NCBI GenBank assembly: GCA_003208875.1
Contig: QCUR01000003.1
Coordinates: 141,766-205,765, forward strand
DNA: 64,000 nucleotides
Source: Prochlorococcus sp. AG-679-M23
GTDB lineage: Bacteria; Cyanobacteriota; Cyanobacteriia; PCC-6307; Cyanobiaceae
Direction: 5' to 3'
This document shows positions 10,299 through 60,584 of the stretch, in pieces. A program made the translations under genes and the position numbers. Position 1 is the first letter of the stretch; every line of letters starts with the position of its first letter. The notes under the pieces were generated by a model. The model had not been told where the DNA came from and searched no databases. It was given only the letters and a program-made list of their open reading frames with translations.

Positions 10299-10350
10299 CA
10301 GAAAAACTATTTATAGTACAAATATACTATAAAACTTACTTAATGCAACC

Positions 10351-11313
10351 TTAGAAAGGGAGTCTCTTTTTTTCTTCAATATTTAGATCAGCTTCCATTT
10401 CTTTAAGTCTTTTTAAAATCTGCTGATAATATTCTTTAATGTAACTTTCTAGAGAAGTAGAATCTTCTTTTTTAAGTTCTAACACTTCATAAGTATTACT
10501 CATATCAGCGTCTAAGGGGACTCCACTACTAGTAACTTCAGCGAAGGCTAATCTTTCAGAAACATTTAGTGCATCTTGAAAAAATGAAACCACATTTTGA
10601 GTTGCTTTTATTAGAAAAGGCGAAACTCTAAAAATCTTTGCTTTCTTATTACTATATTTTTCGCATAAAGAAATTACTTCATCAGAATCCCAGGCCCTTG
10701 GTCCAACTAAAGGAAGTGAAAGCTTATAAGATTTTGGCTTATTTATTGAGGAAACGACAATTTTAGCCATATCTTGGGTGTTCATATACGCGATTTTAGT
10801 TGGGGTGCCACTCATCCATACGGCTTGACTGTCTAAAACAGGTATAGCGAATTGACTAATGACACCTTGCATAAAAGCAGCGCATTTGAAAATTGTATAG
10901 TCAAAATTAGATTTCTCTAGAAGTTTTTCAGTGCAATACTTAACATCCATTAAGGGTACATTTCTAAACTTTTCTGTTGATAAAATCGAGAAAAAAATAA
11001 CCCTTTTTATTTTTTTCGATTCACAAGCATTAAAAAGATTAAGTTTACCGTCCCAGTCAGTTTCATATATACTTTTGGAATCTTCGGGTCTTCCAGTTGC
11101 GCTATCAATAACTACTTCAATATCTTGTAGAGCATAATCTATATCACCAGAGTTTAGTAAATTTCCTTTTGTAAGTTCACAACCCCATTCTTGGAGAAAA
11201 GAAGCTTTCCTAGGATTCCTAACGAAACATCTAACTTCATGCCCTTCTTCAATAGCTTGTTTTGCTATCTGCCTTCCAAGAGTTCCTGTTGCACCTACTA
11301 AAAGAATCTTCAT
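10351..11313 (-). CDS. ycf39: Ycf39-like NAD(P)H-binding atypical SDR
   Basis: GATGTLGRQ Rossmann motif, FLQEWG, WDGK, VPLMDVKYCTE; adjacent to petM. Confidence 0.85.
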   Translation of the reverse strand: MKILLVGATGTLGRQIAKQAIEEGHEVRCFVRNPRKASFLQEWGCELTKGNLLNSGDIDYALQDIEVVIDSATGRPEDSKSIYETDWDGKLNLFNACESKKIKRVIFFSILSTEKFRNVPLMDVKYCTEKLLEKSNFDYTIFKCAAFMQGVISQFAIPVLDSQAVWMSGTPTKIAYMNTQDMAKIVVSSINKPKSYKLSLPLVGPRAWDSDEVISLCEKYSNKKAKIFRVSPFLIKATQNVVSFFQDALNVSERLAFAEVTSSGVPLDADMSNTYEVLELKKEDSTSLESYIKEYYQQILKRLKEMEADLNIEEKKRLPF

Positions 11314-15526: not shown

Positions 15527-16892
15527 TAATTTACTAAGAGCTCCTAACCAGAGTATTGAAGAAACTGGTTACGCTTGGTACGTAGGTAACGCCAGATTAA
15601 TTAATTTATCTGGACGTTTACTTGGAGCACACATTGCACACTCTGGCCTAATAGTATTTTGGGCTGGAGCAATGATGTTATTCGAAGTAAGCCATTTCAC
15701 ATTTGATAAACCAATGTGGGAACAAGGCTTGATTTGCATGCCTCACGTTGCAATGTTTGGGTTTGGAATTGGCCCTGGTGGTGAAGTTACTTCTGTATAT
15801 CCCTTCTTTGTTGCAGGTGTTATACATTTAATTTCCTCAGCAGTTTTAGGTTTTGGAGGAATTTATCACTCTTTAGCTGGCCCAGAAAAGCTCGAGCAAG
15901 ATTTTCCTTTCTTTTCAACTGACTGGAGAGATAAAAACCAAATGACTAATATATTGGGTTATCACCTAGTAGTTTTAGGGGTTGGTGCTTTATTTTTCGT
16001 AGCCGATTGGATGTTTATCGGTGGTGCTTATGACACATGGGCTCCCGGTGGAGGAGAAGTTAGATTGGTTAGTCCAACTTTAGATCCAAGAGTAATACTT
16101 GGTTATCTATTTAGGTCTCCATGGGGAGGTGCTGGTTCAATTATCGGTGTTAACTCAATTGAAGACATTGTTGGAGGCCATGTATACGTTGGTATAACTG
16201 CAATTATTGGTGGTTTATTCCATATCTTCACAAAACCCTTTGGATGGGCTAGAAGAGCATTCATTTGGAATGGAGAAGGACTTCTAAGTTATGCACTTGG
16301 TGGAATCTGTGTTGCAAGTTTTATTGCATCAACTTTCATCTGGTTTAACAATACTGCTTACCCTTCAGAATTCTATGGCCCAACAAACGCTGAAGCTTCA
16401 CAGGCCCAAAGCTTTACTTTCCTTGTGAGAGATCAAAGAATAGGAGCTAATGTAGGTTCAACAATGGGACCAACAGGATTAGGTAAGTATCTCATGAGAT
16501 CTCCTACAGGTGAAATTATATTTGGTGGTGAAACAATGAGATTTTGGGATTTCAGAGGACCATGGTTAGAACCTTTAAGAGGACCTAACGGATTGAGCCT
16601 TGAGAAAATTCAAAATGATATTCAGCCTTGGCAAGTTAGAAGAGCAGCTGAATATATGACTCATGCACCTAATGCTTCTATCAACTCCGTTGGTGGTATC
16701 ATTACTGAGCCTAATGCTGTTAACTTTGTTAACTTAAGACAATGGTTAGCTGCAGCTCAATTCTTCCTAGGATGGTTTACATTCATCGGTCACCTTTGGC
16801 ATGCAGGTCGTGCTAGAGCAGCCGCTGCCGGTTTCGAAAAAGGAATTGACAGAAAGAGTGAGCCAGCTCTAGAAATGCCAGATATTGATTAA
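15510..16892 (+). CDS. psbC: Photosystem II CP43 protein
   Basis: GTG start at 15510 after GAGGAGG, overlapping psb[28 protein letters not shown]. Confidence 0.98.
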
Positions 16893-19442: not shown

Positions 19443-19456
19443 AAACGGAGAGGGTG
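19443..19456 (-). repeat. att copy 1 (tRNA-Ser 3' end)
   Basis: AAACGGAGAGGGTG identical to 30863-30876. Confidence 0.92.
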
Positions 19457-19522: not shown

Positions 19523-19543
19523 ATATCCACCAACATATCCAAG
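19523..19543 (+). repeat. Arm-type-like repeats, left end of cassette A
   Basis: ATATCCACCAAC followed by partial ATATCCAAG; same motif as the cassette C ends. Confidence 0.75.
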
Positions 19544-19607: not shown

Positions 19608-19702
19608 AAAAAAAAACCCCTATTTCTAGAGGTTTTTTTCTGGTTTTACTGAATCAAGTGTTTCCTTGTTTCCACTGTTTCAGTGAAACCTCTCCTACAC
19701 AC
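19608..19702 (-). ncRNA. yfr2: Yfr2-family (Cyano-1) small RNA
   Basis: Minus strand reads GTGTGTAGGAGA, then stem GGTTTCACTGAA/TTCAGTAAAACC enclosing tandem GGAAACA-A-GGAAACA; TAATAT -10 upstream; hairpin plus poly-U downstream; ends approximate. Confidence 0.82.
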
Positions 19703-19803
19703 ATACATATATTAGATCATAAAAATTTTTTTCGTGAAGGGGGTGAGTAATATTACTTAATTGTCACATTTACCAGTTTCGGCCTTTAATACTTAATTGC
19801 ATT

Positions 19804-19871
19804 AAAAAACACCCTAATTCTCAAGAATCAGAGCGTTAATATCAGAAATTAGTGTGTGAGGAGTTTCTAAT
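19804..19871 (-). ncRNA. Yfr1/Yfr10-like small RNA
   Basis: Yfr1 signature ACTCCTCACAC (19854-19864, minus) followed by terminator AACGCTCTGATTC-TTGA-GAATTAGGGTGTT-TTTT; ends approximate. Confidence 0.75.
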
Positions 19872-21403: not shown

Positions 21404-21567
21404 AAGAAGAAACAAATTGGAAAAAAGAATTACTAGAAAGTAAGAAGTTCAATAATAAATTTTCAAAAAATATATTAGAAAATGGTGCAAAGAATTATAT
21501 GCAAGAAATCTATATAGGATATATGTATACCCGATGGAGAAAAATTAGAGAGAAATCTATACTATAA
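21400..21567 (+). CDS. Small hypothetical protein, probable paralog of the preceding gene
   Basis: Not in track; MKEETNWKKELLESKKFNNKFSKNILENGAKNYMQEIYIGYMYTRWRKIREKSIL. Confidence 0.6.
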   Translation: MKEETNWKKELLESKKFNNKFSKNILENGAKNYMQEIYIGYMYTRWRKIREKSIL

Positions 21568-21749
21568 GCATTACCATAAGTACCTACCACATCCCAAAAA
21601 GCATTCCACAACATTTTGATGGTGGTTATAGCGTTAATTTCAAAATGAGAATATAAAACTTTAAATCTATATAAAAACAACTATCCTGTATTTACAGGCA
21701 TTTTAAAGGATTAATTGTCACAAAAAAAGGTATAAGGATCTAAAAATAT

Positions 21750-21762
21750 ACGGAGAGGGTGG
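21750..21762 (-). repeat. att copy 2 (tRNA-Ser 3' end)
   Basis: ACGGAGAGGGTGG identical to 30865-30877. Confidence 0.92.
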
Positions 21763-21832
21763 ACATAGAATTCAATCTAGAATTCCAGTGTAGACCTACT
21801 CTGACCACAGTTTAGTTTAGTAATTCATATGA

Positions 21833-21854
21833 AACCTTGAGACAACCTAGAGAC
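21833..21854 (+). repeat. Arm-type-like tandem repeats, left end of cassette B
   Basis: AACCTTGAGAC-AACCTAGAGAC. Confidence 0.78.
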
Positions 21855-22081
21855 ATTTTAGTTTTTATTACTTAATCGATGGATTTAATTTATTGACTAC
21901 AAATATGGGTCTTCATCACATAGTTATTTCAACTGATTTAGAAGCAAAGAGTATAAAAAGAATTTCAACTGAGAATAATAGTGACCATGATGGAATAAGT
22001 TGTTTAATTAATTTTTAAAAGTTAACCAATGAAAATTAATATGGCACAATAAATATGATTTAGGAAATCCAAAAAATTATT

Positions 22082-22432
22082 GTGGATACTGCTGATAAAC
22101 TTTCGATTCTTCAAGAGAGCGTAAACGCTTTCTTCATTAAATTTTTTGATGGAATGTATCCAGAGAGAGTAGACAGAGATCCTGATTTAGTTAAGTTAAA
22201 ACGAATTGGAAATCTCAACCAATTCAATGGAATTGATAAGGATTTCCCTGATTTTGATATTAAAATGGATATCACGAAAGCATTTACTCATATTATTGAA
22301 CACGGTGATGGAATTGAAATGCTTAAGGAAGAAAATGTTCCATTTGAAGATAGTGTTGAAAGATTAGTTTTGGAAGAACTTACAAATACTGAGAATAGAT
22401 ATGGATATGATTTCAATGATGATGTTGAATAA
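22082..22432 (+). CDS. Hypothetical acidic protein (cassette B)
   Basis: 116-aa ORF, GTG start, abuts the next gene. Confidence 0.65.
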   Translation: MDTADKLSILQESVNAFFIKFFDGMYPERVDRDPDLVKLKRIGNLNQFNGIDKDFPDFDIKMDITKAFTHIIEHGDGIEMLKEENVPFEDSVERLVLEELTNTENRYGYDFNDDVE

Positions 22433-22780
22433 ATGAAAAAACTATTTCTTCTAATTTTAATATTTGGTTTTAATACTCCTGTAAATGCAGAACAATATCA
22501 AAGGCACAAATATACTTGCCCAGAATCTCAAAGTGAATGTAATGAAGGAGAAATAGCAGCAATTAAATTAGTAAATGACACTTATTGGGAAATGCTTTCA
22601 GAGAGAATCAAGGAAAATAAACATTATAAGTATCCTTGGTATTGGGTTTACAAAAAGGGGGAGTGTAAATATTCTGTCGCTGCGAAGGAAGATATGCCAA
22701 AGCATACAGTCACTATGGAATGGATTGATGTTGATATTTGCGAAAAAACCACTAAATTGTTGGATCTAAGACGCAGATGA
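22433..22780 (+). CDS. Putative secreted hypothetical protein
   Basis: Signal peptide MKKLFLLILIFGFNTPVNA; four Cys. Confidence 0.7.
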   Translation: MKKLFLLILIFGFNTPVNAEQYQRHKYTCPESQSECNEGEIAAIKLVNDTYWEMLSERIKENKHYKYPWYWVYKKGECKYSVAAKEDMPKHTVTMEWIDVDICEKTTKLLDLRRR

Positions 22781-22860
22781 AAATTAAAAAAAATATTCTC
22801 TCTAAGATTGCTAATCGATCATTATCCCAATTGGGTTCTTTTCTCATTGATTAAGACTAA

Positions 22861-25800
22861 TTAACTTGCAACTAATTCTTCTCCTAGAGTTTCTGCTTGT
22901 TGTAGAACAGTCTCAACTGCAGTAATTTGTTCATCTGGTGGATACTTATATCTCTTCAAAAGTGTTTTGATTTTAAGTCTCAGTTTTGCCCTGACATTTT
23001 CTTTATATTGCCAGTCAATATTTGCATCTCTCCTCATAATTTCTGCAAGTTCTCTTGCCATATTTGCAAGAACTTCTTCTTTCAAAAGTTTATGAGCAGA
23101 TGGGTTGTCTGCTAAAGCATCATAGAAAGATTGTTCTGCAGAAGATAAACCTAATGCAATCCCACGTTCTAAATCTTCTCTGAATTTCTTTGCCATTTCA
23201 ATTAGTTCTTCTATTACTTGTGCTGCTTCTATCGCCCTGTTTTCATATTTTTGCAATGATTTAGAAAGCATTTCACTAAAGTTTTTCTGCTTCACAACAT
23301 TTGTTCTGAACTTACTTTTTACTTCATCATTTATGAGTTTTTGAAGCAATTCAACTGCTAAATTTTTCTGTGGGATCTTACTTACTTCTGATAAGAATTG
23401 ATCTGACATGATACTTATATCTGGATTCTTGAGACCAGCAACTTTGAATACATCAGTTATTCCATCAGAGACTAATGATTCAGATAGAAGTTGTTGTAAT
23501 TCAAACCCATAAGTTTGAGGTGGACGTACAACAATATCTCCTTTTATTAGCATTGCTCTTATTGCTTGAAGGAATGCTATTTCAGGACTATGTTCAAGTG
23601 CTTCATCAGTTGTTCCACAAAGAGCAAATGCTTTCGTTATTTTTAGAACTGTATTGCAGAATCTTTTCTTCCCATCATCTATCTCGAGAATATGGTCAAG
23701 ACAATTTGGAATAATGTCTAATGCTTTTCCTTTCTCTCTAAAGTGACCCCATTCAACAGGATGTAAGAGATCTTCTGCTATTTGAATTTGTTCAAGAAGT
23801 ACACGAACTGCTTCACTGGTATCAAGTTTTATTTCCCCTTTTCCGTTTGCTGCTGTGTAAGTAGCAAGTGCCTCTTTGAGTTGTGGAGCAATACCTATGT
23901 AATCAACAATCAGTCCACCTGGTTTATCCTTGAAAACTCTATTGACTCTTGCAATTGCTTGAGCAAGATTTGCTTCTTTCATTGGTTTATCTACGTACAT
24001 AGTTGCTAAACAAGGTGCATCAAAACCCGTCAACCACATATCTCTTACAAGAACGATTTTGAGTGGATCATTTGGATCTTTGAATCTATTCTCTAAATCT
24101 TTTTTTTGTTGTTTGCTTGTGTGATGAGGTTGAAGAAGTTCCGACTCAGAAGCAGATGCAGTCATGACAACTTTTACAGAACCTTTCATATGATCCGAAT
24201 CTTTCCATGCTGGTTTGAGATCGACTATCTCGTTGTAAAGACGTGCACAGATTTCTCTACTCATTCCAACAATCAATGCTTTTCCAGGTTGCGTTTTAGA
24301 TCTTTGTTCATAGTGGGCAATAAGATCTTTTGCTACTTGTTTGAGTCGAGGTTCTGCTCCTACTAATGCTTCTAATGCTGCCCATCTACTTTTCGCCTTT
24401 TCAGTAGAAGAAATATCATCTTCATTTTCAAAAATTTCATCAAACCTACTATCTAAACTCGGAGTACTGCTTTCTTTGAGTTTTAGTTTTGCTAGTCTTG
24501 ACTCGTAATAAATTGGAACTGTTGCTCCATCATCTACTGCTTGCTGAATATCATAAATAGAAACGTAATGACCAAAGACTGCTTGTGTATCTCGATCATC
24601 TTGAGAAATTGGAGTTCCTGTAAATGCCAAGAAAGTTGCGTTTGGAAGAGCATCCCTCAGTCCTTTTGCTAATCCATATTTCACTTCTCCTGTCTTTGAA
24701 TCAATTCTTCCTTTGAAACCATATTGAGTTCGATGTGCCTCATCACAAATCACCACAATATTTTTTCTATCAGTCAATGCAGGGAATTTTTCTTCGTCCT
24801 TTTCTGTTGCAAATTTTTGAATGGTTGTAAAAATAATTCCTCCACTAGGTCTGTTATCTAATAGATCTCTTAGATCTTTTCTTGACTCTGCTTGCTTAGG
24901 TTTTTCTCCCAATAAATCTCCAGATCCAGTAAAGACACCAAATAACTGACCATCAAGATCTTGCCTATCAGTGACCATTACTAAGGTGGGATTTTGAAGT
25001 CTTTTATCGGTTAGAAGTTTTCCTGCTAAACATGCCATCTCGATACTTTTTCCTGCACCTTGCGTATGCCAAACAACTCCACCTTTGCGATCACCATCTG
25101 GTTTACTTGCCTCTATGACTCTTTCGACTGCAGTATTGACTGCATAGAACTGATGATAAGCAGCAATCTTTTTGATAATTTCTTTTTCTTCTTCAAAGAC
25201 ACAGAATGAACGTATGAAATCTAATAATCTTTTTTTATCGAATAATCCTCTAACTAAGGTTTCTAATTGTTTGAACTTTCCAAGTGGATCTAAATCTTGT
25301 TCTTTTTCAATAACTCTCCATTGCTGGAATCTTTCCTCATTCGCAGAAAGCGATCCTACTTTTGCATAAGTACCATCACTAATAACTAATAGAACATTTG
25401 GAGTAAATAAATCAGGAATATCTACTTTATAAGTTCTTAGTTGATTGAAAGCGTCCCAGATATCAGTTTTTTCATTTGCTGGATTCTTGAGTTCAATTAC
25501 TGCAATTGGGAGACCATTTATATAAACAACAACATCAGGTCTACGATTATTTTTTGGACCACTAATTGCTAATTGATTGACGACTAACCAATCATTTTTA
25601 TCAGGATTATCAAAATCAATAATTCTTAGTCGGATTCCAATTTCTTGGTTACCTTCCATGTAAGAAATAGGAAGTCCTTTGGTCATCCATATGTGAAATT
25701 GACGATTCGAAGCAACTAATCCAGGAATATTTGGATTGGTTATTTGTAGAACTGCTGAATCAATAGTTTTACTAGGAACTTCAGGATTCAATTTTATAAG

Positions 25801-25962
25801 TGCAGACTTCAAACGAACTGTTAGATAAACTTGTCTGAAATCAATTCTTTCAGGAGAGTCTCCATCAGGAGCAATATTTGGACCATAAACATATTGATAT
25901 CCGAGATCTTCAAACCATTCAATTGAAGTTTCTTCTATTAGATTTTCATCTATCAATGACAT
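22861..25962 (-). CDS. hsdR: Type I restriction endonuclease subunit R
   Basis: RPD-x13-ELK nuclease motif, HTQGAGKS Walker A, DEAH, FTGTP, WLTGFD, QAIARVNR. Confidence 0.96.
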   Translation of the reverse strand: MSLIDENLIEETSIEWFEDLGYQYVYGPNIAPDGDSPERIDFRQVYLTVRLKSALIKLNPEVPSKTIDSAVLQITNPNIPGLVASNRQFHIWMTKGLPISYMEGNQEIGIRLRIIDFDNPDKNDWLVVNQLAISGPKNNRRPDVVVYINGLPIAVIELKNPANEKTDIWDAFNQLRTYKVDIPDLFTPNVLLVISDGTYAKVGSLSANEERFQQWRVIEKEQDLDPLGKFKQLETLVRGLFDKKRLLDFIRSFCVFEEEKEIIKKIAAYHQFYAVNTAVERVIEASKPDGDRKGGVVWHTQGAGKSIEMACLAGKLLTDKRLQNPTLVMVTDRQDLDGQLFGVFTGSGDLLGEKPKQAESRKDLRDLLDNRPSGGIIFTTIQKFATEKDEEKFPALTDRKNIVVICDEAHRTQYGFKGRIDSKTGEVKYGLAKGLRDALPNATFLAFTGTPISQDDRDTQAVFGHYVSIYDIQQAVDDGATVPIYYESRLAKLKLKESSTPSLDSRFDEIFENEDDISSTEKAKSRWAALEALVGAEPRLKQVAKDLIAHYEQRSKTQPGKALIVGMSREICARLYNEIVDLKPAWKDSDHMKGSVKVVMTASASESELLQPHHTSKQQKKDLENRFKDPNDPLKIVLVRDMWLTGFDAPCLATMYVDKPMKEANLAQAIARVNRVFKDKPGGLIVDYIGIAPQLKEALATYTAANGKGEIKLDTSEAVRVLLEQIQIAEDLLHPVEWGHFREKGKALDIIPNCLDHILEIDDGKKRFCNTVLKITKAFALCGTTDEALEHSPEIAFLQAIRAMLIKGDIVVRPPQTYGFELQQLLSESLVSDGITDVFKVAGLKNPDISIMSDQFLSEVSKIPQKNLAVELLQKLINDEVKSKFRTNVVKQKNFSEMLSKSLQKYENRAIEAAQVIEELIEMAKKFREDLERGIALGLSSAEQSFYDALADNPSAHKLLKEEVLANMARELAEIMRRDANIDWQYKENVRAKLRLKIKTLLKRYKYPPDEQITAVETVLQQAETLGEELVAS

Positions 25963-27275
25963 TAGATACCAACCTCATCAATCATTCTTTCTGCATCAGA
26001 AATTATGAGTTCTCCCGAAACTAGTCTTGGAAGCAATGTATCTCTAAGTTCTTCTAGCAACATATTAGAAACTATATTCGAAGTTCTTTTTTTGAATAAT
26101 AATAAGGCAATTTTTTCGTAGCGTTCGCATATTTTATTAGGAGGCACAATAATCTTTAATTTTCTACAATCTTCTCTTCTTAGAAATCCTCTTGCACTTC
26201 CAGAAACCCATGAAGTAATTTCTTTGACCTTATTACTAAAGGAATAGTAAGTAAACATTTGGTCAATACTATTATTTTTTGATCTAATTCTCCACATATT
26301 TTGATTTAGTAAAGATGGAACAATATCACTTGAAACCAAACCTATTTTGCCTAAAGTTGCCCCAACCATTACAAATAACGTATCACCTTCAAGTAATTCA
26401 AATTTTCTAAATTCATCAAATTTATCTTTCTCAATAAAGACAGCATCCTTTTTATTGATAAAAGAATCTTCTCCAATGTTTAGTGTTCTAACTATAAAAG
26501 ATCCTTTTGTAGTGTAATCCTTACTTTTGAAAGCATATCCGCCACTCAAATCTGCAATTTCATCTAATTCTTTTACTTGCCATCCTTTTGGAATCTCTCC
26601 TAATTCAGAATCTTCAAATGAATCTGGAAATAAATTACTAATCTCGTCAGGTAATCCAGTTGAGAGACCTTCTACTTTTGCTTTTACAGGATCAAAATCT
26701 ATAAACCAAGATTTGAAAAGTGCTTTTGCTATTTCTTCAAGAGTTTCATTAGTTTTTTGATTGATTTCAATTTTTTTATCAAGGGTTCCAATGATATGTG
26801 CAATTGCTTTTTGTTCATGGAGAGGAGGATATTCAAATTCAAATCTTCCTAAAACCTTTGCATTTGCTCCTGCTTGTGCAGAACCAGTTTTTGAACCCCT
26901 TACGAAATTCCACCATGAGGAACTTCTCATACATCGCCATACATATGAAGGATCCACAATTTGTTTATTTACGCGAAATCTTATGAGGTAAGAAGCAAAA
27001 ACCACAAAAGATTCTCCTTGAAATAAATAATTTTCTCCAGTACTATTTCCTGTTCTCGCAACAACAATATCTCCATCGTTCAAAAGATATTTTGATTTTG
27101 AGGATGAATCTATTTCGCAGAATGGAACATCTCTCCATTGCACAAAACCATTTTGAATATCTGTAATTCTTAGGAATTTTGTGCCAGTATTTTCATCTGT
27201 TGCACTTGCTGTAAAACCATACTCGATTTTTTCTGAGACGTCAGCAAGTGAAGTTTTTTTCCAATTACTATTCAT
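25962..27275 (-). CDS. hsdS: Type I RM specificity subunit S
   Basis: Two TRDs; PPLHEQKAIA, ELGEIPKGW and LRDTLLPRLVSGE conserved regions; overlaps hsdM and hsdR. Confidence 0.94.
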   Translation of the reverse strand: MNSNWKKTSLADVSEKIEYGFTASATDENTGTKFLRITDIQNGFVQWRDVPFCEIDSSSKSKYLLNDGDIVVARTGNSTGENYLFQGESFVVFASYLIRFRVNKQIVDPSYVWRCMRSSSWWNFVRGSKTGSAQAGANAKVLGRFEFEYPPLHEQKAIAHIIGTLDKKIEINQKTNETLEEIAKALFKSWFIDFDPVKAKVEGLSTGLPDEISNLFPDSFEDSELGEIPKGWQVKELDEIADLSGGYAFKSKDYTTKGSFIVRTLNIGEDSFINKKDAVFIEKDKFDEFRKFELLEGDTLFVMVGATLGKIGLVSSDIVPSLLNQNMWRIRSKNNSIDQMFTYYSFSNKVKEITSWVSGSARGFLRREDCRKLKIIVPPNKICERYEKIALLLFKKRTSNIVSNMLLEELRDTLLPRLVSGELIISDAERMIDEVGI

Positions 27276-28842
27276 ATCCTATACGATTCAAATTCTCAGC
27301 AATTTTTTGATCTAATTTTGCTCCCTCTTCCTGTTGTGTTTTGAGTAAAGAGGTAAGTCTTTTCATCTTTTCATCAAAAGGTTCACCATCATCCTCTTCT
27401 TCTGGAGCACCAACATATCGTCCAGGAGTTAGAGCAAAACTATTCTTTTCAATCTCTTCAAACTTTGCGTTGTAGCAGAAACCTGCAACGTCCTCATACT
27501 CATCATCTTTACGCCAAGATTGGACAGTATCTGCAATCTTAGAAATATCTCCATCAGTGAGAATTCTCTCAACTCGATTTTTCATTGTTCCCATTTGGCG
27601 AGCATCAATGAATAAAGTTTCTCCTTTTCTATCTCTACCTCTTTGAGTTTTATCGTTAGTCAAAAACCATAAACAAACTGGAATTTGGGTATTCAAAAAT
27701 AATTGCCCAGGCAATGCAACCATAACTTCAACCACATCTTTTTTGACCATCTCTTCTCGAATATTCCCCTCATTACTTGTATTAGAACTCATAGATCCAT
27801 TTGCAAGAACTACTCCTGCTTGACCACCTGGTCTCAACTTCCAAAGCATATGTTGTAACCATGCATAGTTAGCATTTCCTGCTGGTGGTCTTCCATATGC
27901 CCAGCGAACATCACTTTCATATTTTTCCCCACCCCAATCAGAAATATTGAAGGGTGGATTAGCGAGTATGTAATCAAATTTTTGATCAAGATGCTGATCT
28001 CTTGCAAAAGTATCTGCAGGTTCTTGTCCTAAATCGGCAGAAAAACCCCTAATTGCAAGGTTTATTGCTGCTAATCGCCAAGTAGTAGGATTACTTTCTT
28101 GACCATAAATTGAAATAGCATCTCTTTCTCCTCCATGTGCTTCTATAAATCTTTCACTTTGAACAAACATTCCACCTGATCCACAACATGGATCATAAAC
28201 TCGACCTTTATCAGGAGATAAAACTGCAACTAATGTTTTTACAACGTGAGAAGGAGTATAGAATTGTCCTCCTTTTTTTCCTTCAGCACTTGCAAATTGA
28301 CCCAAAAAGTATTCAAAAACTTCACCTAAAACATCTCCCGAATTTTCTTGCTCAGTGAAACCAACGGTTGAAAAAAGATCTATTAGTTGTCCTAATATTC
28401 CAAATTCTAATTGAGCAGTACTAAATCTTTTATCTAACTTTCCCCTTAGGTCTGAGTTTTCATTCTCAATCGAAACCAATGCTTTATCAATACGCTGACC
28501 AATATCAGGTTGTTTTGCTTGATTTCTAAGTTCTTCCCATCGGGCATCTTTTGGAACCCAAAACACATTTGCTTGAGTGTAATAATCTCTATCTTCTAAT
28601 GCCTCTTGATGATCTTTAGGATCATCTCCAAGAAAATAATCTGAGTCTGGGGTGCTAACTATTTCTAATACTTTTTTCTGATGTTCAACAAAGGTATCCG
28701 AAACAAATTTTAGAAATATCAATGGAAGAACAAGATTCTTATATTCAGCAGCATCCATTTGAGCACGTAATTTATCTGCACTTGCCCAAAGAACTGCTTT
28801 GAAATCTTTTGGAGTATCTTCTTTCTTTTTAGGAATGACCAA
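27268..28842 (-). CDS. hsdM: Type I RM methyltransferase subunit M (m6A)
   Basis: LWASADKLR, GQFYTP, YDPCCGSGG, NPPF, LTPGRYVG. Confidence 0.96.
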   Translation of the reverse strand: MVIPKKKEDTPKDFKAVLWASADKLRAQMDAAEYKNLVLPLIFLKFVSDTFVEHQKKVLEIVSTPDSDYFLGDDPKDHQEALEDRDYYTQANVFWVPKDARWEELRNQAKQPDIGQRIDKALVSIENENSDLRGKLDKRFSTAQLEFGILGQLIDLFSTVGFTEQENSGDVLGEVFEYFLGQFASAEGKKGGQFYTPSHVVKTLVAVLSPDKGRVYDPCCGSGGMFVQSERFIEAHGGERDAISIYGQESNPTTWRLAAINLAIRGFSADLGQEPADTFARDQHLDQKFDYILANPPFNISDWGGEKYESDVRWAYGRPPAGNANYAWLQHMLWKLRPGGQAGVVLANGSMSSNTSNEGNIREEMVKKDVVEVMVALPGQLFLNTQIPVCLWFLTNDKTQRGRDRKGETLFIDARQMGTMKNRVERILTDGDISKIADTVQSWRKDDEYEDVAGFCYNAKFEEIEKNSFALTPGRYVGAPEEEDDGEPFDEKMKRLTSLLKTQQEEGAKLDQKIAENLNRIGYE

Positions 28843-28954
28843 TAAAAAATAATTGCTCTTATTTTATACCTAATTGCTATTTTGTTTGATTCAATGCTTA
28901 CTTTCTGACATGCGATTTGTTATTTTTTTAATTAGTTAAAGAGCGAATAAAATC

Positions 28955-29149
28955 ATGATTACTAATAAGAGATACCAAACGTTATTAATGCTTGCGACAA
29001 CAGGCAAACCTTTAAATAAAGACGCTACAGAAGAAGAAAAGAAATTCTACGAAGAATGTAAACATGACTATAAAGTCATGAAAGAAACCGCAAAGAAAAA
29101 GGGCATAAAGAATCCAATTTTAGAAATACCAATGGAAGTTGATTTTTAG
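28955..29149 (+). CDS. Small hypothetical protein (cassette B)
   Basis: 64-aa ATG ORF divergent from hsdM. Confidence 0.6.
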   Translation: MITNKRYQTLLMLATTGKPLNKDATEEEKKFYEECKHDYKVMKETAKKKGIKNPILEIPMEVDF

Positions 29150-29348
29150 AGAAATAATGCAACCACCAAAGACCTCTGAAGAATTAACAGAAATGTATCC
29201 CGATCTAGAACCTTGGCAAAGGGATGAACTAGAAATTTGGCACAGAGGATGGATTACTAAATTAATGACTGGAGATGCAACATCAAAAGAATATAATGCT
29301 GCAATACCTCCTCATCCAGATCCTCATCACCCTGAAGATGATGAGTAA
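29139..29348 (+). CDS. Small hypothetical protein (cassette B)
   Basis: 69-aa track ORF (an ATG at 29157 is an alternative start); Pro/His-rich C-terminus. Confidence 0.55.
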   Translation: MIFREIMQPPKTSEELTEMYPDLEPWQRDELEIWHRGWITKLMTGDATSKEYNAAIPPHPDPHHPEDDE

Positions 29349-29381
29349 AATAAGGTTTGAAAATTATTTGTATCTCTAAAA

Positions 29382-29425
29382 AACCTAGAGACTTTAAAAA
29401 AATAACCCTGAGACAACATAGAGAC
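29382..29425 (+). repeat. Arm-type-like repeats, right end of cassette B
   Basis: AACCTAGAGAC (29382), AACCCTGAGAC (29404), AACATAGAGAC (29415). Confidence 0.78.
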
Positions 29426-29549
29426 AAGAGTGGTCATTGTGGTAACTTATAAAAGTCAAACGGGTTAAAGAATACCTAAAACAACTCAGTCATAACAGTG
29501 AATCTGGACATTCTGACCAATTCTGACTACATCTTATTTGTATAAAAAT

Positions 29550-29561
29550 ACGGAGAGGGTG
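29550..29561 (-). repeat. att copy 3 (tRNA-Ser 3' end)
   Basis: ACGGAGAGGGTG identical to 30865-30876. Confidence 0.92.
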
Positions 29562-29629
29562 AAATTCACTTTCGTGTTTTAACGGCAGATACAGGAACAT
29601 CTGGGATGGTTAAAGGGATGTAGAGGCAA

Positions 29630-29653
29630 ATATCCACCAACACATCCACCAAC
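29630..29653 (+). repeat. Arm-type-like tandem repeats, left end of cassette C
   Basis: ATATCCACCAAC-ACATCCACCAAC. Confidence 0.8.
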
Positions 29654-29764
29654 ACCAAAAACTTGCCTATATTGGACGATATTGGATTGATAAATCTGTA
29701 TATAAATTACAATTTTATATATATTTTTTTCTAGGGATATAATTATCAAAATATTTAATAAAAA

Positions 29765-30652
29765 ATGAAAACACTCTATTCATTTTTAGTTTCATTATTA
29801 GTAATACCTTTTTCAACAACTATAGGACTAGGGTCTTTATATTTTTATAGTGAACTTGCAATTTTCACTAGAGAAGCAAAAGCAACAAACTGGAATGCAT
29901 TTAATCTAAATTTTAAAAAAGGGTTGAGATATCTTGATAAGGGTGAATATCAAAAGGCACTTGATGCTTACAACAGAGTAATTAAAATTTATGCACTTGA
30001 TGGACCTAGTTTCTACAACAGAGGCACAGCATATTTAGGATTAGGAAAATACAATGAGGCAATTAAAGACTTTTTAAAATCAATTAAATACGATAATGAG
30101 AAAGGCAACCAATATGCTTATAACAATATTGCAGTCGCATACGATAATCTTGGAGATTACAAAAATGCCCTTAAATATATCAACTTAGCAATAGATGCGT
30201 ACCCTAAATTTGGACTTTATTTTCACAATCGTGCTTACTATAATTTGGAGTTAGAAAATTTCAAAGATGCAGAAAAAGATTATGCGAAAGCAAAAGAAGT
30301 TTACTTAAAATATAAAAGTACAAGAATGATTGGAGATTGTCCAAAAGTTAAGAATCTAGAGCATTGCAAACTAGATTCTTGGTTCTATAACGATTTAGGT
30401 TATGCAAAAGAGAGTTTAGGAGATTTTAGAGGAGCATTGGTTAATTACGATAAAGCAATAGAAATAAATTATCCAAATCCAAATGAAGAAAAATTTATCA
30501 TATTCAATAATCGGGGAAATACAAGATATGAATTAGGTGATGAGAAGGGTGCTTGTAAAGATTACAAGTTTGCTGCATCAATAGGTGACGCGGAAGGAGT
30601 TGAGTGGTTGAAATCAAAGGATGGTAAATGGTGCGGAGAAATGGAATTTTAA
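29765..30652 (+). CDS. Tetratricopeptide repeat protein with hydrophobic N-terminus
   Basis: Repeated YNRG..Y..LG.Y..A..D...AI TPR units. Confidence 0.9.
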   Translation: MKTLYSFLVSLLVIPFSTTIGLGSLYFYSELAIFTREAKATNWNAFNLNFKKGLRYLDKGEYQKALDAYNRVIKIYALDGPSFYNRGTAYLGLGKYNEAIKDFLKSIKYDNEKGNQYAYNNIAVAYDNLGDYKNALKYINLAIDAYPKFGLYFHNRAYYNLELENFKDAEKDYAKAKEVYLKYKSTRMIGDCPKVKNLEHCKLDSWFYNDLGYAKESLGDFRGALVNYDKAIEINYPNPNEEKFIIFNNRGNTRYELGDEKGACKDYKFAASIGDAEGVEWLKSKDGKWCGEMEF

Positions 30653-30666
30653 AACATAAAAAGATT

Positions 30667-30754
30667 TATCCACCAACACATACTTTCTCCATCAAATATC
30701 CACCAACACATCAAAAAATATCCACCAACATATCCACCAACATATCCACCAACA
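30667..30754 (+). repeat. Five TATCCACCAACA direct repeats, right end of cassette C
   Basis: Copies at 30667, 30697, 30719, 30731 and 30743. Confidence 0.9.
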
Positions 30755-30865
30755 CATTTATGCATATACTGGTAAATGTTGGATTATATAGGACAAACAA
30801 CTTCTCTAAAATCCCATTTTGACCGCATTTTTGCCAACATAGCACTTCACAGGATGATAATTAAA

Positions 30866-30950
30866 CGGAGAGGGTGGGATTCGAACCCACGAATAGTTAC
30901 CTATTAAACGATTTCGAATCGTTCGCTTTCGACCACTCAGCCACCTCTCC
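30866..30950 (-). tRNA. tRNA-Ser(CGA)
   Basis: GGAGAGGTGGCTGAGTGGTCGAAAGC..., anticodon arm AACGA-TTCGAAA-TCGTT, long variable arm, GGTTCGAATCCC, discriminator G. Confidence 0.96.
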
Positions 30951-31001
30951 GTAATTAAATAATATATAAAATTTATAAATTCGTTTTTTTTATCTTATTT
31001 A

Positions 31002-32033
31002 TTAATTCCAACCCGCTTCTTTCATCATTTTGATTGCGAGAGAATTATTTTCACCTAACTCATCTACCGTGACTTTATCAGAAGTAAACTCCCCAAAGTT
31101 TTTGACTATTTCATTTTGATTAACTTCATTTAAAGGATGTTCAAAAGTAGGTGCGGCTAAACCCTTACTTCCTTCTGGTGAGGCTAAAAATTCAAGCAAT
31201 TTTATAGCTTCAGACTTGTTAGTAGCATATCTAGCAACACCTCCAGCACTAATGTTTACGTGTGCAGGATTGGGTGTAATAACAGACGTTTTTTTTGCAT
31301 ATAAAGAATCTCTTCTTCCATTAACACCGGCAAGCATTCTTGCAACATAGTAGTGATTGACAATCCCGACACCACATTTTTTCTTGGAAACTGCTCTTAC
31401 TATTGCAATATCACCTGGGAAGAAAGGTTTAGAAACATTAGAAATCATTCCACTTAACCAAGCTTTAGTTTCAGTCTCACCTTTATTAACTATTTGATTA
31501 GCTACCAGAGATTGGTTGTAAGGACTTTTTCTATTTCTTAAACATACTTTCCCTTTTAAAGAGGGATCAGCTAGATCCGAATAGTCCCTTATTTTATTAA
31601 CATCCACAACTTTTGGATTAGCAACCATGACCCTAACTCTTCTAGTTAGCGCATACCATTCCCTACCTGGATCTTTTAAACCATCTGGAACATCGTTCTC
31701 TAAATTTGATGAGTCAATTCTTTGCAGCAAACCTGCTTTTGCAGCATTAGTTATTCTTGCTGCATCAACAAGCAAAATCACATCTGCTTGAGAATTTTTT
31801 CCTTCTCTTTTTAATCTTTCAATTAAAGATATCCCGGCAGCTTCAATAAGTCTTACTTTTATCCCAGTTTCTTCCGCAAATTTCTTATAAACTCCTCTAT
31901 CGGTATTGTAATGTCTTCCTGAATAAACTTTCACTTCTTTTTCAGTTGAGTTAACAGGTATATTTGTATTAAATAAGAAAGTAAGGGTCAAAGCTGAATA
32001 AAAAAGTCTTTTTAGTTTTTGCACTTTTATCAA
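31002..32033 (-). CDS. futA: Fe(III) ABC transporter substrate-binding protein FutA/IdiA
   Basis: VYSGRHYNTD, YNQSLVA, VNHYYVARM, HVNISAGG. Confidence 0.93.
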   Translation of the reverse strand: MIKVQKLKRLFYSALTLTFLFNTNIPVNSTEKEVKVYSGRHYNTDRGVYKKFAEETGIKVRLIEAAGISLIERLKREGKNSQADVILLVDAARITNAAKAGLLQRIDSSNLENDVPDGLKDPGREWYALTRRVRVMVANPKVVDVNKIRDYSDLADPSLKGKVCLRNRKSPYNQSLVANQIVNKGETETKAWLSGMISNVSKPFFPGDIAIVRAVSKKKCGVGIVNHYYVARMLAGVNGRRDSLYAKKTSVITPNPAHVNISAGGVARYATNKSEAIKLLEFLASPEGSKGLAAPTFEHPLNEVNQNEIVKNFGEFTSDKVTVDELGENNSLAIKMMKEAGWN

Positions 32034-32126
32034 TTAGTATCTATGGTTACTTTATATATATCCAACGAGCAAGAATCCTAAAAGAAATTTTCTATACACG
32101 GCCTTGTATCATTTTTTATACATAAA

Positions 32127-32792
32127 ATGAATTATTTAACGCACCAGCTACTTAATGAAGAGGAAATAGAAATATTAAATAACAATATAAAAAAACAAAA
32201 TAATCTTTGGGAAGATGGAAAAAAGACCGCGGGAAGTCATGCTTCAAAAGTAAAAAATAATTTGCAATTAAATAGAAATTCGGAAGTTTCAAAAAAATAT
32301 TCTCAATTAATTAATAAAAAGATCCTTGCCAACTCGCTAATTAAGAGTTTTTCACTACCTAAAATAATCCATGGAACTATGTTCACCAAATCATCGCTAA
32401 ACATGGGTTATGGGAGACATATTGATAATCCATTTATGTCTTCAGGTAGATCAGATTTATCGTTTACTATTTCATTAACTAATAAAGATTTTTATGAAGG
32501 TGGAGAGTTAGTAATTGAAACGATTAACTCTGAGAAAGAATTTAAGCTAAATGCCGGTGAGATAATTATTTATCCAAGTACTTATTTACATTCAGTTAAA
32601 GAGATAAAAAATGGTGAAAGATTAGTATGCGTTGGATGGATCGAAAGTTATGTTAAATCAATTGAACAAAGAGAGTATTTATTTGATCTTGATGCGGGAG
32701 CAAAAAGCATATTAGCTAAACATGGCAGGTCGGATGAACTTGATTTAGTTTTTAAATCTTATTCAAACTTTCTTAGATTGCTTGGCAACTAA
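32127..32792 (+). CDS. PKHD-type Fe(II)/2OG hydroxylase (PiuC/YbiX family)
   Basis: WEDGKKTAG..VKNNLQ, HIDN, RSDLSFT, YEGGEL, YPSTYLHSV, GER. Confidence 0.92.
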   Translation: MNYLTHQLLNEEEIEILNNNIKKQNNLWEDGKKTAGSHASKVKNNLQLNRNSEVSKKYSQLINKKILANSLIKSFSLPKIIHGTMFTKSSLNMGYGRHIDNPFMSSGRSDLSFTISLTNKDFYEGGELVIETINSEKEFKLNAGEIIIYPSTYLHSVKEIKNGERLVCVGWIESYVKSIEQREYLFDLDAGAKSILAKHGRSDELDLVFKSYSNFLRLLGN

Positions 32793-32867
32793 AGAAACAT
32801 TTTATACATGCTGAAGAAATTAGTTATTTAATTATTTAATATATTAATAGTTAAGTTTAAATTTAAA

Positions 32868-33107
32868 ATGCCTAAAAGAAGTGCAATAGCATTATTTGTA
32901 GCAGCAACAAGTGCCCTTTCCATAGCGGCAACAGAGGATATTTCCTTGAAAGCCGGAGAAAATGATATGGGAGGTTTAAAAGAATGGAATACTGATATGC
33001 CAGTTAACTCAGATTTTATATTGGATGAAGCAGCCCAAAAATTAGCTGATGAAGCTGCTAAATCAAGTATGTGTATACCAATTGGAGAGGGTGAAAACTG
33101 CTGGTAA
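32868..33107 (+). CDS. Small putative secreted peptide with C-terminal Cys pair
   Basis: Signal-like N-terminus; ends MCIPIGEGENCW; followed by a terminator. Confidence 0.7.
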   Translation: MPKRSAIALFVAATSALSIAATEDISLKAGENDMGGLKEWNTDMPVNSDFILDEAAQKLADEAAKSSMCIPIGEGENCW

Positions 33108-33151
33108 AAAAATTTCCTAATATCAACAACAAAGTAAATATTTAAGTAGTT

Positions 33152-33182
33152 AAAAAAAAACGCCCTATTCAGGGCGTTTTTT
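33152..33182. terminator. Bidirectional intrinsic terminator
   Basis: AAAAAAAAACGCCCT-ATTC-AGGGCGTTTTTT. Confidence 0.88.
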
Positions 33183-33199
33183 AGTTTCAAAATCTAGTT

Positions 33200-34483
33200 C
33201 TAGAATTTGAATGTAGTTTCTAAAAGTGCACCAGTCAGGTCTGAACTTGCTGTTCCGTTTCTGTCGGAACCACCAAATACAGTTGGAGTTACATTAATAG
33301 AATCATTCACTTGGAATGAATAATAAGCTTCCCAAGCAAAAGGATCAGTTGTTTCTGACTCTTTCTTTTGTGGCTGACCGAAAGCTAATCCAATTCTGTC
33401 ATCAGCTTGGAAAATATCTTGCCAGTTTAAACCTACAAAATACATATTTGTATTACTGTTTGAACTAGCATCTGTTTCAGATGTATCAAAACCAACAGAA
33501 ATTGAAGGGGTAGCATTTCCTGTTTCTGCAGGTCTCCACCATCCTCTTAAACCAATATTGGTACTATTACCATCTCCAGCTCTGGTTTTACCAGCTGAAG
33601 TAGTGAAGTAACTATCAGTCCATCCGTTGTACTTTTGGTTAACAATCGCTGATACTGAATACTGTGGTTGTGTATAACCAACTTGAGTAGCCCAACTTGT
33701 CTTACCATCGTTAGTTAAAACACCTGTAGATTCGTTACCTTTTTGAGTAGTGAAGTTTGTGCTAAAAGCTAGTCCACTATCACCAGTCCATGTCAAGCCT
33801 GCTCCAGGACTTGTACTTGCACCATATGCTGACGCATTACCACCAAGAGTAAACTGTTTTAAAACAGGTTTGTAAATTGATGGGGTTGTACCATGCATAT
33901 AGTAGTTTTCAATCTTAGGTCCAGCAGTAAATGTAAACTTGTCACCTACAGGCATTGAGTACCACAACTTATCAACCTTGAATCCATCTCCATTCTGGTT
34001 GGCAGATGATAAATATGTACCATATGCAGTTTCGTTAAATGGTAGGGTTTTTTCTCCAGCGGAATCTTTAGGACCGTTTCCAGTCTTAATTCTTACGTAA
34101 AGATTGTCATCCCCAGTAAAACTTGTATTCAAGTTCATTACGTACATGTACTGGAAAACAGTAGCTTCATTAAGAGCAGTAATGCTATCATCAGCATCAA
34201 GAGCTCCAACAGAGAAAACTGCTTTACCATCCATTGTTGTGGTATCAGAGAAACCACCTGCTTCAAAATCGTTAAATTGAGTTTCTAAACCATCAATTTT
34301 ATCGTTGACTGTTGCAAGTTCATTTGCAAAAGATTTGCTATTAAATTGTTGTTTTTTTGAAGATGATTTACTACGAGAGTAGCTATTCATACTTTCAATA
34401 TTAATGTCGTTAGCTTGAGCACCGATCGGAGCAATTAAGCCGATAGCTGCACTAGCAACCAACATTTGTTGGAAGAGTTTCAT
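33200..34483 (-). CDS. som: Som-type (OprB-like) outer membrane porin
   Basis: MKLFQQML signal, coiled coil then FSDTT, LNTSFTGDDNLYVR, C-terminal TTFKF. Confidence 0.92.
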   Translation of the reverse strand: MKLFQQMLVASAAIGLIAPIGAQANDINIESMNSYSRSKSSSKKQQFNSKSFANELATVNDKIDGLETQFNDFEAGGFSDTTTMDGKAVFSVGALDADDSITALNEATVFQYMYVMNLNTSFTGDDNLYVRIKTGNGPKDSAGEKTLPFNETAYGTYLSSANQNGDGFKVDKLWYSMPVGDKFTFTAGPKIENYYMHGTTPSIYKPVLKQFTLGGNASAYGASTSPGAGLTWTGDSGLAFSTNFTTQKGNESTGVLTNDGKTSWATQVGYTQPQYSVSAIVNQKYNGWTDSYFTTSAGKTRAGDGNSTNIGLRGWWRPAETGNATPSISVGFDTSETDASSNSNTNMYFVGLNWQDIFQADDRIGLAFGQPQKKESETTDPFAWEAYYSFQVNDSINVTPTVFGGSDRNGTASSDLTGALLETTFKF

Positions 34484-34487
34484 TTTA

Positions 34488-34495
34488 CCTCACAC
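34488..34495 (-). promoter_or_regulatory. Yfr1-family sRNA seed site in the som 5' UTR
   Basis: GTGTGAGG 4 nt upstream of the ATG, complementary to CCTCACAC. Confidence 0.7.
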
Positions 34496-34624
34496 GGAAA
34501 AAACCCACACGAATGGGTAAACAAATTGTATCGAGTGTAACCTTATTGAGTAGGAAAATAAGATTCCTTTGCAAGTATCAATTTATACATAAGCCCTTAT
34601 TTTTGAATATTAATCTCTAGATTT

Positions 34625-35497
34625 TTATTTTTTCACTAATGGGAAGTTTAATAACTCTCTCTCTTTCACCCATGAAGAGGCAACTTCTCTTGCTAAATTT
34701 CTAATCTTTTCAATGTATTGAGCACGATCTGTTACCGAGATTACTCCTCTCGCATCAAGTAAATTAAATACGTGACTACATTTTAAAACATAATCAAGAG
34801 CAGGGTAAGTAAGCTTCTTTTCAGTTAATAAATTTGCTTCATCTTGGTAGATCTCAAATAATTTTCTGAGATTTTCAGGATTAGATTCAGTGAAATTATA
34901 TGAGCATTGACCTTTTTCAAATTGGAGCCAAATGTCACTATATTTCAAATCTTTATTCCATTTCAAGTCCCAAATACTTTCCTTATCTTGCAAGAACATT
35001 GCAATCCTCTCTAAACCATATGTAATTTCAATTGGTATTGGTTTACAATCAATTCCACCACACTGTTGGAAATAGGTAAATTGAGTAACTTCCATCCCAT
35101 CTAACCAAACCTCCCAACCTACTCCCCACGCTCCTAGGGTAGGTGACTCCCAATTGTCCTCTACAAACCTTATGTCATGATCTCTAGGATTTATTCCAAG
35201 AAATTCTAAAGATTTCAAATATTTTTCTTGAATCCCATCTGGGGAAGGCTTAATTATTACTTGATATTGAAAATAATGTTGAGCACGATTGGGATTATCA
35301 CCAAATCTTCCGTCTGTTGGTCTTCTACATGGCTCAGCATATGCAACAGACCAAGGTTCGGGTCCAATTGCCCTCAAAAAAGTATGAGGATTCATTGTTC
35401 CCGCTCCCTTTTCAGTATCGTAAGGCTGCATAATCAAACAACCCTCTTTGGACCAAAAATTATTTAAATTTTGAATTATATCCTGAAAAAACATCAA
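34625..35497 (-). CDS. glyQ: Glycine--tRNA ligase alpha subunit
   Basis: [40 protein letters not shown]. Confidence 0.97.
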
Positions 35498-35649
35498 ATT
35501 TTAAGAAGTTTAGAATTTAGATCAATGCCATTAAACATAATAACAAAACTTAAAACAAAAAATATTTTCAACTCTAATTTTTCAAAAGCATTATCTGGTA
35601 TGTGGATAGTATAAAATTTAATCCAATATAAACATAAATTAGAAATTAA

Positions 35650-38457: not shown

Positions 38458-39516
38458 CTAATTTTGTGTAATTTTTGCATTCTCCATATTGTCAAAAGCT
38501 TGACCAATTTTCTTAAAGTCAAATCCCATAGCTCTTAGAGCATGCCATAAATGACCTTGTAAAAAGAAGAATCCTAAATAAAAGTGCGTATTTGCAAGCC
38601 ATGCTCTAGAACTATAAGCTCCAGAACCTAAATCAACAGTGTCAGTAAAGTAAGGAGCAAATTCAAATGAAAGCTTTAATGGTTCCCCATAAAGATCAAC
38701 TGGATAAATAGTAGTATTTGAAGCACACCAGAATGCTGCTACAAAAGCCATATAAGAAACTCCTACTACTGAGTAAGAGAGGATCGCCTCAGCACCTAGT
38801 AATCCTTTACCTTTGAATTCTGTATATTCTCCAAATTGTTTTGTGCAAATATGGAAAACCCCTCCAATAATTTCTAAGAAGGCTAAGAACGCATGACCAC
38901 CCATAATATCTTCCAAGCTATCAATTTTAAGAAAATCAAACTGATGATTCCAAATAGCAGCGATATCTAAATTGTAAATTACTTGTCTTGTGGAACCAAT
39001 CGCAGGATCGTAAATACCATGAATGCGAGCCCATTCAACAAACATTATTGCTCCAAGTCCTAAGAAAATAAGATGATGACCAAGTATAAAAGTCAATTTA
39101 TCAGGATCATCCCACTCGAAATCAAATTTTTGAGGCTTACTATTTTCTGGATAATCTCCAAGATCACCTGCAAATTTGTTGGAATGTAATAATCCACCAG
39201 CACCTAATACTGCTGAGAAGATTAGATGCAATGTGCAAATTACAACAATTCCATATGGTTCTGTAATGACTCCATTCTCAATCCCTCCAATCCCAATGCC
39301 AGCGAGGTGAGGCAAAACAATTGCTTTCTGAGCACCCATTGGAATACTGGCGTCATAACGAGCTAATTCAAATAATCCAAAAGCCCCTGCCCAGAACATC
39401 ATTAATCCTGCATGTGCAGCATGAGCAGCTATGAATTTACCTGAACGGCCAACAACACCAGAATTACCTGCGTACCAGTCATAGGTAACATCAGTTTTTC
39501 CGTAGTTTTGTAACAC
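38458..39516 (-). CDS. pcb: Pcb/IsiA-family chlorophyll a/b-binding antenna protein, probably iron-stress type
   Basis: YDWYAGN, AAHAAHAGL, LGHHL, GHLWHALRA; no CP43 large loop; downstream of flavodoxin. Confidence 0.93.
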   Translation of the reverse strand: MLQNYGKTDVTYDWYAGNSGVVGRSGKFIAAHAAHAGLMMFWAGAFGLFELARYDASIPMGAQKAIVLPHLAGIGIGGIENGVITEPYGIVVICTLHLIFSAVLGAGGLLHSNKFAGDLGDYPENSKPQKFDFEWDDPDKLTFILGHHLIFLGLGAIMFVEWARIHGIYDPAIGSTRQVIYNLDIAAIWNHQFDFLKIDSLEDIMGGHAFLAFLEIIGGVFHICTKQFGEYTEFKGKGLLGAEAILSYSVVGVSYMAFVAAFWCASNTTIYPVDLYGEPLKLSFEFAPYFTDTVDLGSGAYSSRAWLANTHFYLGFFFLQGHLWHALRAMGFDFKKIGQAFDNMENAKITQN

Positions 39517-60491: not shown

Positions 60492-60565
<74 letters not shown>

Positions 60566-60584
60566 TATATTTTTTCACACATAA

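Follow-up and report, generated by a model that had tools for sequence, protein, structure and literature searches.

An integrase-less, probably CIME-like cassette with its own family of end repeats shares a tRNA-Ser(CGA) core in a Prochlorococcus island

The window analysed here, a stretch of 64,000 nucleotides from Prochlorococcus sp. AG-679-M23 (GenBank assembly GCA_003208875.1, contig QCUR01000003.1, positions 141,766 to 205,765), contains three stacked segments, A, B and C, downstream of a tRNA-Ser(CGA) gene. Segment B, 7.8 kb from core to core (21750-29550), is bounded by partial copies of the tRNA, carries short direct repeats just inside both ends and holds a type I restriction-modification (R-M) system. 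Its repeats cluster beyond chance, its ends are conserved among genomes while the cargo between them is swapped, and its neighbour C is present or absent independently of it. We consider it probable that B is an integrase-less cassette resembling a cis-mobilizable element (CIME) and that it represents a second family of attachment sites of the phage type (attP) sharing one tRNA core.

The borders of the three segments are defined by the tRNA itself. The tRNA-Ser(CGA) gene occupies 30865-30951 on the minus strand, and its 3' end (30865-30876) is the 12-bp core ACGGAGAGGGTG, which constitutes the bacterial attachment site attB and the fourth core copy of the island. The same core recurs on the plus strand at 19445 (copy 1, 19445-19456, the distal border of A and of the whole island), at 21750 (copy 2, 21750-21761, the A/B junction) and at 29550 (copy 3, 29550-29561, the B/C junction), giving core-to-core spacings of 2305, 7800 and 1315 bp. 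Both cores of B are exact copies. When the window was searched with the 14-mer ATACGGAGAGGGTG at up to 2 mismatches, four matches were obtained (19443, 21748, 29548 and 30863) against 0.10 expected, and none of 100 shuffles reached four.

Just inside these cores lie the repeats of B, and the five copies that the first-pass annotation had reported were all confirmed. The short arm (21833-21854, plus strand) is the dimer AACCTTGAGAC-AACCTAGAGAC, with units starting at 21833 and 21844, at gaps of +71 and +82 from the core. The long arm (29382-29425, plus strand) consists of AACCTAGAGAC at 29382, AACCCTGAGAC at 29404 and AACATAGAGAC at 29415, at gaps of -157, -135 and -124. The units follow one another at multiples of 11 bp. 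The degenerate word AAC[AC][CT][AT]GAGAC matched five times in the 64 kb, always on the plus strand and just inside the ends of B, and not once on the minus strand; first-order Markov simulations averaged 0.19 matches with a maximum of 2, and 0 of 200 reached five. Likewise, all four matches to the B 11-mer at up to 1 mismatch fell at the ends of B. A loose search at up to 2 mismatches returned 11 matches against 13.45 expected (76 of 100 shuffles had at least 11), which is chance level; for the specific word, with 0.19 expected against 5 found, a chance origin is ruled out.

A second, different repeat marks the other segments. The word TATCCACCAACA occurs in seven exact copies in the window, or eight at up to 1 mismatch, all at the ends of A and C. 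The short arm of C (29631-29654, plus strand) is TATCCACCAACA-CATCCACCAACA, at +69 and +81 from its core, and its long arm (30667-30754, plus strand) contains five exact TATCCACCAACA units at -186, -156, -134, -122 and -110. The left arm of A (19524-19535, plus strand) has one exact unit at +67 from core copy 1, followed by a partial copy, and belongs to the C-type family. As the first-pass annotation had proposed, the word of B is unrelated to TATCCACCAACA, with no evident similarity on either strand, although the same 12-bp core serves B, C and the left end of A. The likeness in geometry that it had noted also holds: although the words are unrelated, the offsets of B (+71/+82 and -157/-135/-124) and C (+69/+81 and -156/-134/-122) agree within 1-2 bp at five positions by direct comparison of the gaps measured from the 12-bp core. 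All arm units share one orientation, with the short arm (two sites) distal and the long arm (three to five sites) proximal to the tRNA.

This layout of two plus three sites in the same orientation is that of integrase arm-type sites, and the anatomy of B corresponds to the left and right attachment sites (attL and attR) of a tyrosine-integrase element. Indeed, B has short repeats in both arms away from the crossover core, as does the heterobivalent (lambda-type) attP; rejoined through the core, its sites would cover about 270 bp and might rebuild such an attP. B most likely descends from an element like the tycheposons, which are defined by their integrase, hallmark genes and organisation (bioRxiv 10.1101/2020.12.28.424599), and would have entered by tyrosine-integrase recombination within ACGGAGAGGGTG. 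The AACCTAGAGAC-type repeats may then be the arm-type binding sites of the lost integrase, two on the short arm and three on the long arm. A and C may stem from another attP family, with the same core and arm geometry but the arm word TATCCACCAACA, in which case at least two arm specificities would aim at one attB. The structure of the arms supports two families on one core. Of the first-pass proposal that at least two integrase specificities share this attB, the part that stands is the existence of two unrelated arm families on a common core; that each family has an integrase of its own we infer. An additional direct repeat close to the left core of B, TAGAATTCAA-TC-TAGAATTCCA (21766-21787, plus strand), has a 12-bp period and is kept in the related genome AG-676-L21; it is a candidate core-side or accessory protein site.

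Among the loci retrieved, the closest relatives of the window come from Prochlorococcus single-cell genomes, and two of them, AG-676-L21 and AG-670-O17, have ends of the B type at this same tRNA-Ser(CGA), in both cases without an integrase among the open reading frames (ORFs) scanned. In AG-676-L21, the left end of B matches the window at 95.6% identity over 113 bp, starting at the core and stopping 5 bp past the repeat dimer (the conserved left end, 21762-21859 on the plus strand of the window), and the right end does so at 91.5% over 656 bp. The 6.7 kb in between cannot be aligned with the window, save for 132 bp at about 70% identity inside hsdM. In the window this space is occupied, on the minus strand, by family-matched hsdR (type I restriction subunit, 1033 amino acids, 22861-25962), hsdS (specificity subunit, 437 amino acids, 25962-27275) and hsdM (methyltransferase, 524 amino acids, 27268-28842), and by two plus-strand ORFs of 116 and 115 amino acids (22082-22780) that lack a family match and were found in this copy of B only. 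AG-676-L21 carries instead a different type I R-M system (HsdR 31% and HsdM 34% identical to those of the window) and a YgjP-like peptidase. In AG-670-O17, where the left end of B falls outside the retrieved locus, the cargo in front of the same right end includes a HamB-like DEAD-box helicase together with a 2OG-Fe(II) oxygenase. Thus, across three genomes the ends are 91-96% identical while the defence cargo in the same frame differs, comprising two unrelated type I R-M systems and one HamB-like helicase. B now retains only a left end of about 110 bp and a right end of about 635 bp, which includes two small conserved ORFs, around a slot for defence cargo.

Segment C varies on its own. The order in AG-676-L21 is A, core, B, tRNA, so that C is absent and B directly abuts the tRNA. 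In AG-670-O17, C is cut to 215 bp from core to core (locus 10147-10362) and lacks cargo: a core and a left arm with two TATCCACCAACA-type units are joined to the sequence that follows the last right-arm unit and to the tRNA core, which places the units at +69/+81 from one core and at -122/-110 from the other. This miniature C is a complete arm pair with nothing in between. Alignments of the B/tRNA junction with the B/C/tRNA junctions change partner exactly within the 12-bp core. With C present, absent or reduced, with borders exactly at the core and with the units of B intact, the pattern points to some site-specific turnover. The first-pass idea that the cassettes could be mobilised independently of one another is borne out in part, by the absence of C in AG-676-L21 and its 215-bp remnant in AG-670-O17; B itself sits at one place in all three genomes, its cargo alone differing.

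That B is a CIME-like cassette of a second attP family has to be weighed against several observations. None of the 61 window ORFs of at least 100 amino acids matched a recombinase family, nor, at E≤0.1, did any of 35 stop-to-stop frames from the sequence of A, B and C outside the cargo, nor any of 28 ORFs (20 + 8) scanned in the two related loci, whose unscanned ORFs fall in stretches that align with integrase-free sequence of the window. For the content of B, the family searches covered Pfam, PHROGs and PADLOC. No candidate helper integrase thus emerged in the window or the two related loci. The first-pass annotation had set the presence of the motif at the ends of autonomous elements as a test. 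We scanned a genome collection with one genome per species for the exact tandem dimer AACNYWGAGACAACNYWGAGAC and obtained 12 loci, of which three came from two Prochlorococcus genomes; the nine from other taxa are unrelated short tandem duplications (G+C 45-74%), about the number that chance would give by our estimate. Apart from these duplications, the scan returned only integrase-less Prochlorococcus B cassettes and, in this one collection, no autonomous element with the B motif; given the exact-dimer pattern and the single genome per species, absence elsewhere is weak evidence. Phage records likewise gave no match to window positions 28900-29700 (blastn, distant setting). The text of the tycheposon preprint, moreover, is silent on an arm-binding domain in tycheposon integrases, and the seven integrase-associated tRNAs that it gives include Ser(tga) and not Ser(cga) (bioRxiv 10.1101/2020.12.28.424599). 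As to the ends themselves, one B unit in AG-670-O17 has a substitution. The B ends (91-96%) have diverged about as much as the chromosomal left flank (86-93%), as would be expected of an old insertion passed on vertically, and selection on the repeats is not indicated. This similar divergence, the lack of a helper among the sequences searched and the position of B, which is the same in all three genomes with only its cargo differing, speak against current activity.

The same observations allow another explanation, namely that the repeats are former arm sites in cassettes that are now fixed, and that the genomes differ by homologous recombination and deletion, with no helper integrase at work. 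The lack of any integrase in the window and related loci and the closeness of end and flank divergence both favour it. The miniature C is the product expected from in-register recombination between the direct 12-bp units of its two arms, and the right end of A in the window has lost a C-type arm that is still present in AG-676-L21. Degenerated remnants and partial tRNAs are, furthermore, described in islands by the tycheposon preprint (bioRxiv 10.1101/2020.12.28.424599). Yet the switch between B/tRNA and B/C/tRNA falls precisely inside the 12-bp core, the outcome expected if C were gained or lost site-specifically, and both arms of B with all five units are intact in two of the two genomes where both ends are visible. 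We therefore regard such fixed relics as a rather unlikely explanation, but the most serious of the alternatives.

Two small ORFs on the plus strand form the right-end module of B and, in each of the three genomes, directly precede the right arm: one of 64 amino acids (28955-29149), the other, strongly acidic, of 63 amino acids (29157-29348, with its ATG start set from homologues). Both are real genes, conserved in the three genomes and with relatives in 265 and 107 clusters of metagenome-derived proteins, respectively. Many of these relatives are near-identical, and some clusters have hundreds to more than 1000 members. The right-end module is thus probably common in wild populations, though only two species-representative genomes matched the DNA pattern. 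The AlphaFold2 model of the 64-amino-acid protein consists of three helices (predicted local distance difference test score, pLDDT, of 85) and had no PDB fold match at E≤0.001 among the 32 listed. An excisionase function was considered for the small ORFs and rejected, as neither has a Pfam or PHROG match and the 64-amino-acid model has no PDB fold match.

The position of these genes raises the question of whether the repeats bind a protein other than an integrase, such as a directionality factor, a replication initiator (with the repeats as iterons) or a transcription regulator, possibly the product of one of the two ORFs lying immediately upstream of the right arm. Tandem repeats of 11-12 bp are also typical of iterons. 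Such a binder seems improbable to us. The repeats occur in both ends at fixed distances from the core, and two unrelated families share the same geometry. No replication protein family was found in B or C, in window ORFs or stop-to-stop frames, whereas an iteron-type origin would have one beside its repeats. The 64-amino-acid protein, a three-helix model, has no PDB match at E≤0.001 and no Pfam or PHROG match, the second protein is strongly acidic, and both C and its miniature form have repeats without these two ORFs.

A single integrase might also serve both cassette types, the arm words not determining specificity and no cassette being addressed separately. Core and arm geometry are indeed identical, and according to the tycheposon preprint each tRNA has its specific integrase (bioRxiv 10.1101/2020.12.28.424599). 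However, the two words show no evident resemblance on either strand, recognition of arm sites in studied systems is sequence-specific (PMC4880445), and for related phages sharing one attB, arm sequences that differ, and presumably specificities that differ too, have been reported (PMC3203893). We find this the least credible of the alternatives, hardly to be expected.

If B is instead a CIME-like cassette with arm sites of its own, it would be movable only where a cognate integrase is supplied in trans, and the addressing of each cassette to its own helper integrase is plausible. A more far-reaching scheme can be drawn, in which the tRNA-Ser(CGA) site is a platform for cassettes. Integrase-less modules consisting of the core and an arm "address label" (down to 215 bp) would be kept in the population as docking frames, with defence cargo exchanged inside them, and would be moved selectively by integrases encoded elsewhere, the arm word choosing the integrase. 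These could be transient tycheposons or the Prochlorococcus core-genome integrase that is named in the legend to Figure 3 of the preprint (bioRxiv 10.1101/2020.12.28.424599). Such a platform would divide labour much as integrons do, using att sites of the lambda type, but we consider it a speculative and unlikely scheme.

C carries, as cargo, a family-matched protein with TPR repeats (295 amino acids, 29765-30652, plus strand). Segment A has Rfam matches to the Cyano-1 RNA (70.1 bits) and to Yfr10 (68.3 bits), at 19637-19704 and 19794-19871 on the minus strand, so that small RNA genes sit within a segment bounded by att cores. The right end of A (21549-21747) differs from its counterpart in AG-676-L21 (locus 2382-2649), the sequence of the window being unrelated there. 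In AG-676-L21 this end is a C-type right arm, 92% identical to the right arm of C in the window over 133 bp, and in the window it holds only an inverted unit with 2 mismatches, at 21617. Either the decay of an arm or a third type of arm could account for it. In the AG-670-O17 locus, at 15664/15665, the equivalent of window position 36177 (in an MIF-family gene) is joined to inverted sequence from position 20985 of segment A; the junction reflects either an inversion with one of its ends inside the island or a chimera of the single-cell assembly.

The surroundings are those of a cyanobacterial chromosome, with a G+C content of 32% and genes for psbD/psbC-type photosystem II proteins, CobQ, an iron-type solute-binding protein, flavodoxin and other cyanobacterial housekeeping functions. 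The flank on the tRNA side (31002-35500), which encodes a solute-binding protein, a 2OG-Fe(II) oxygenase, a 427-amino-acid protein without a Pfam match and glyQ, is only about 76-78% identical to both relatives, compared with 86-93% for the left flank and for the sequence past 35635. Rfam matches to IsrR were obtained at 15924-16107 (minus strand, 157.2 bits) and 38946-39114 (plus strand, 54 bits), antisense to the two genes of the photosystem II/Pcb type. A tRNA-Arg(TCT) at 60491-60566 is one of the seven island-associated tRNAs of the tycheposon preprint, and neither repeat family nor the Ser core was found near it.

Compared with known systems, B resembles tycheposons in its setting, a Prochlorococcus island at a tRNA, in its borders of partial tRNA copies and in its defence cargo. 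In the preprint, elements are stacked with partial tRNAs between them, the newest lying nearest to the tRNA. However, the inward-facing site-specific integrase at one end was not found in B, nor were the hallmark genes of mobility and replication (primase, helicase, polymerase, excisionase), its content being HsdR, HsdS, HsdM and four small ORFs. Lacking an integrase and a replication module, B falls outside the tycheposon definition. Subterminal repeats go unmentioned in the main text of the preprint, in which "arm-type", "direct repeat" and "arm" have no occurrence. B also appears distinct from an integron gene cassette, as no integrase was found in the window and its borders are direct copies of the tRNA 3' end and not of the attC type. 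According to the same preprint, only 3.6% of Prochlorococcus island material belongs to integrase-carrying elements, and much of the rest is treated as transferred, without clear boundaries (bioRxiv 10.1101/2020.12.28.424599). Here, three stacked segments are delimited to the base by core copies, and the repeats near their ends assign them to two attP families. If the repeats are arm-type sites, they would provide a simple sequence handle to type integrase-less island segments and to match each with a candidate integrase, and a way to ask whether defence cargo is swapped by site-specific or by homologous recombination.

The closest parallels for the arms are found in phages. Phage lambda Int uses its small N-terminal domain to bind arm-type sites, which lie in the P and P' arms (PMC4880445). 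Mycobacteriophages have paired 11-bp repeats on either side of tRNA or tmRNA cores, at tRNA-Lys in Pixie and Tweety and at tmRNA in Cluster K1 (PMC3203893). In Pixie the putative arm sites number two plus three and are directly oriented; Tweety, at the same site, has other arm sequences and "presumably" another recognition specificity (PMC3203893). B thus shares with these attP sites the pairs and triplets of repeats of the 11-bp class around a tRNA-derived core, and the situation of Pixie and Tweety is that of B and C. The phage sites, in contrast, adjoin the integrase gene of autonomous phages, whereas B has no integrase and its arm sites are putative. For the cassette as a whole, the parallel is the CIME, which has lost its integration genes, retains attL and attR and takes part in tandem accretion, as in the Streptococcus ICESt1 family (PMC5704250). 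Being without an integrase, B fits the CIME definition so far as its anatomy goes: it lacks integration and transfer genes, it stands in a tandem array of the kind that arises from repeated integration at an att site, including a tRNA end, and at the sequence level it retains attL and attR, with exact cores and intact arms in the window and in AG-676-L21. It differs from CIMEs in having no conjugative context and no functional neighbour able to mobilise it in cis, in that the cassettes next to it use a different arm word, and in that its mobility is hypothetical. We found no description of the arrangement in this setting in the literature consulted. B is therefore a new instance of a known arrangement, since CIMEs (PMC5704250) and the divergence of arm sites at a shared attB (PMC3203893) have both been described.

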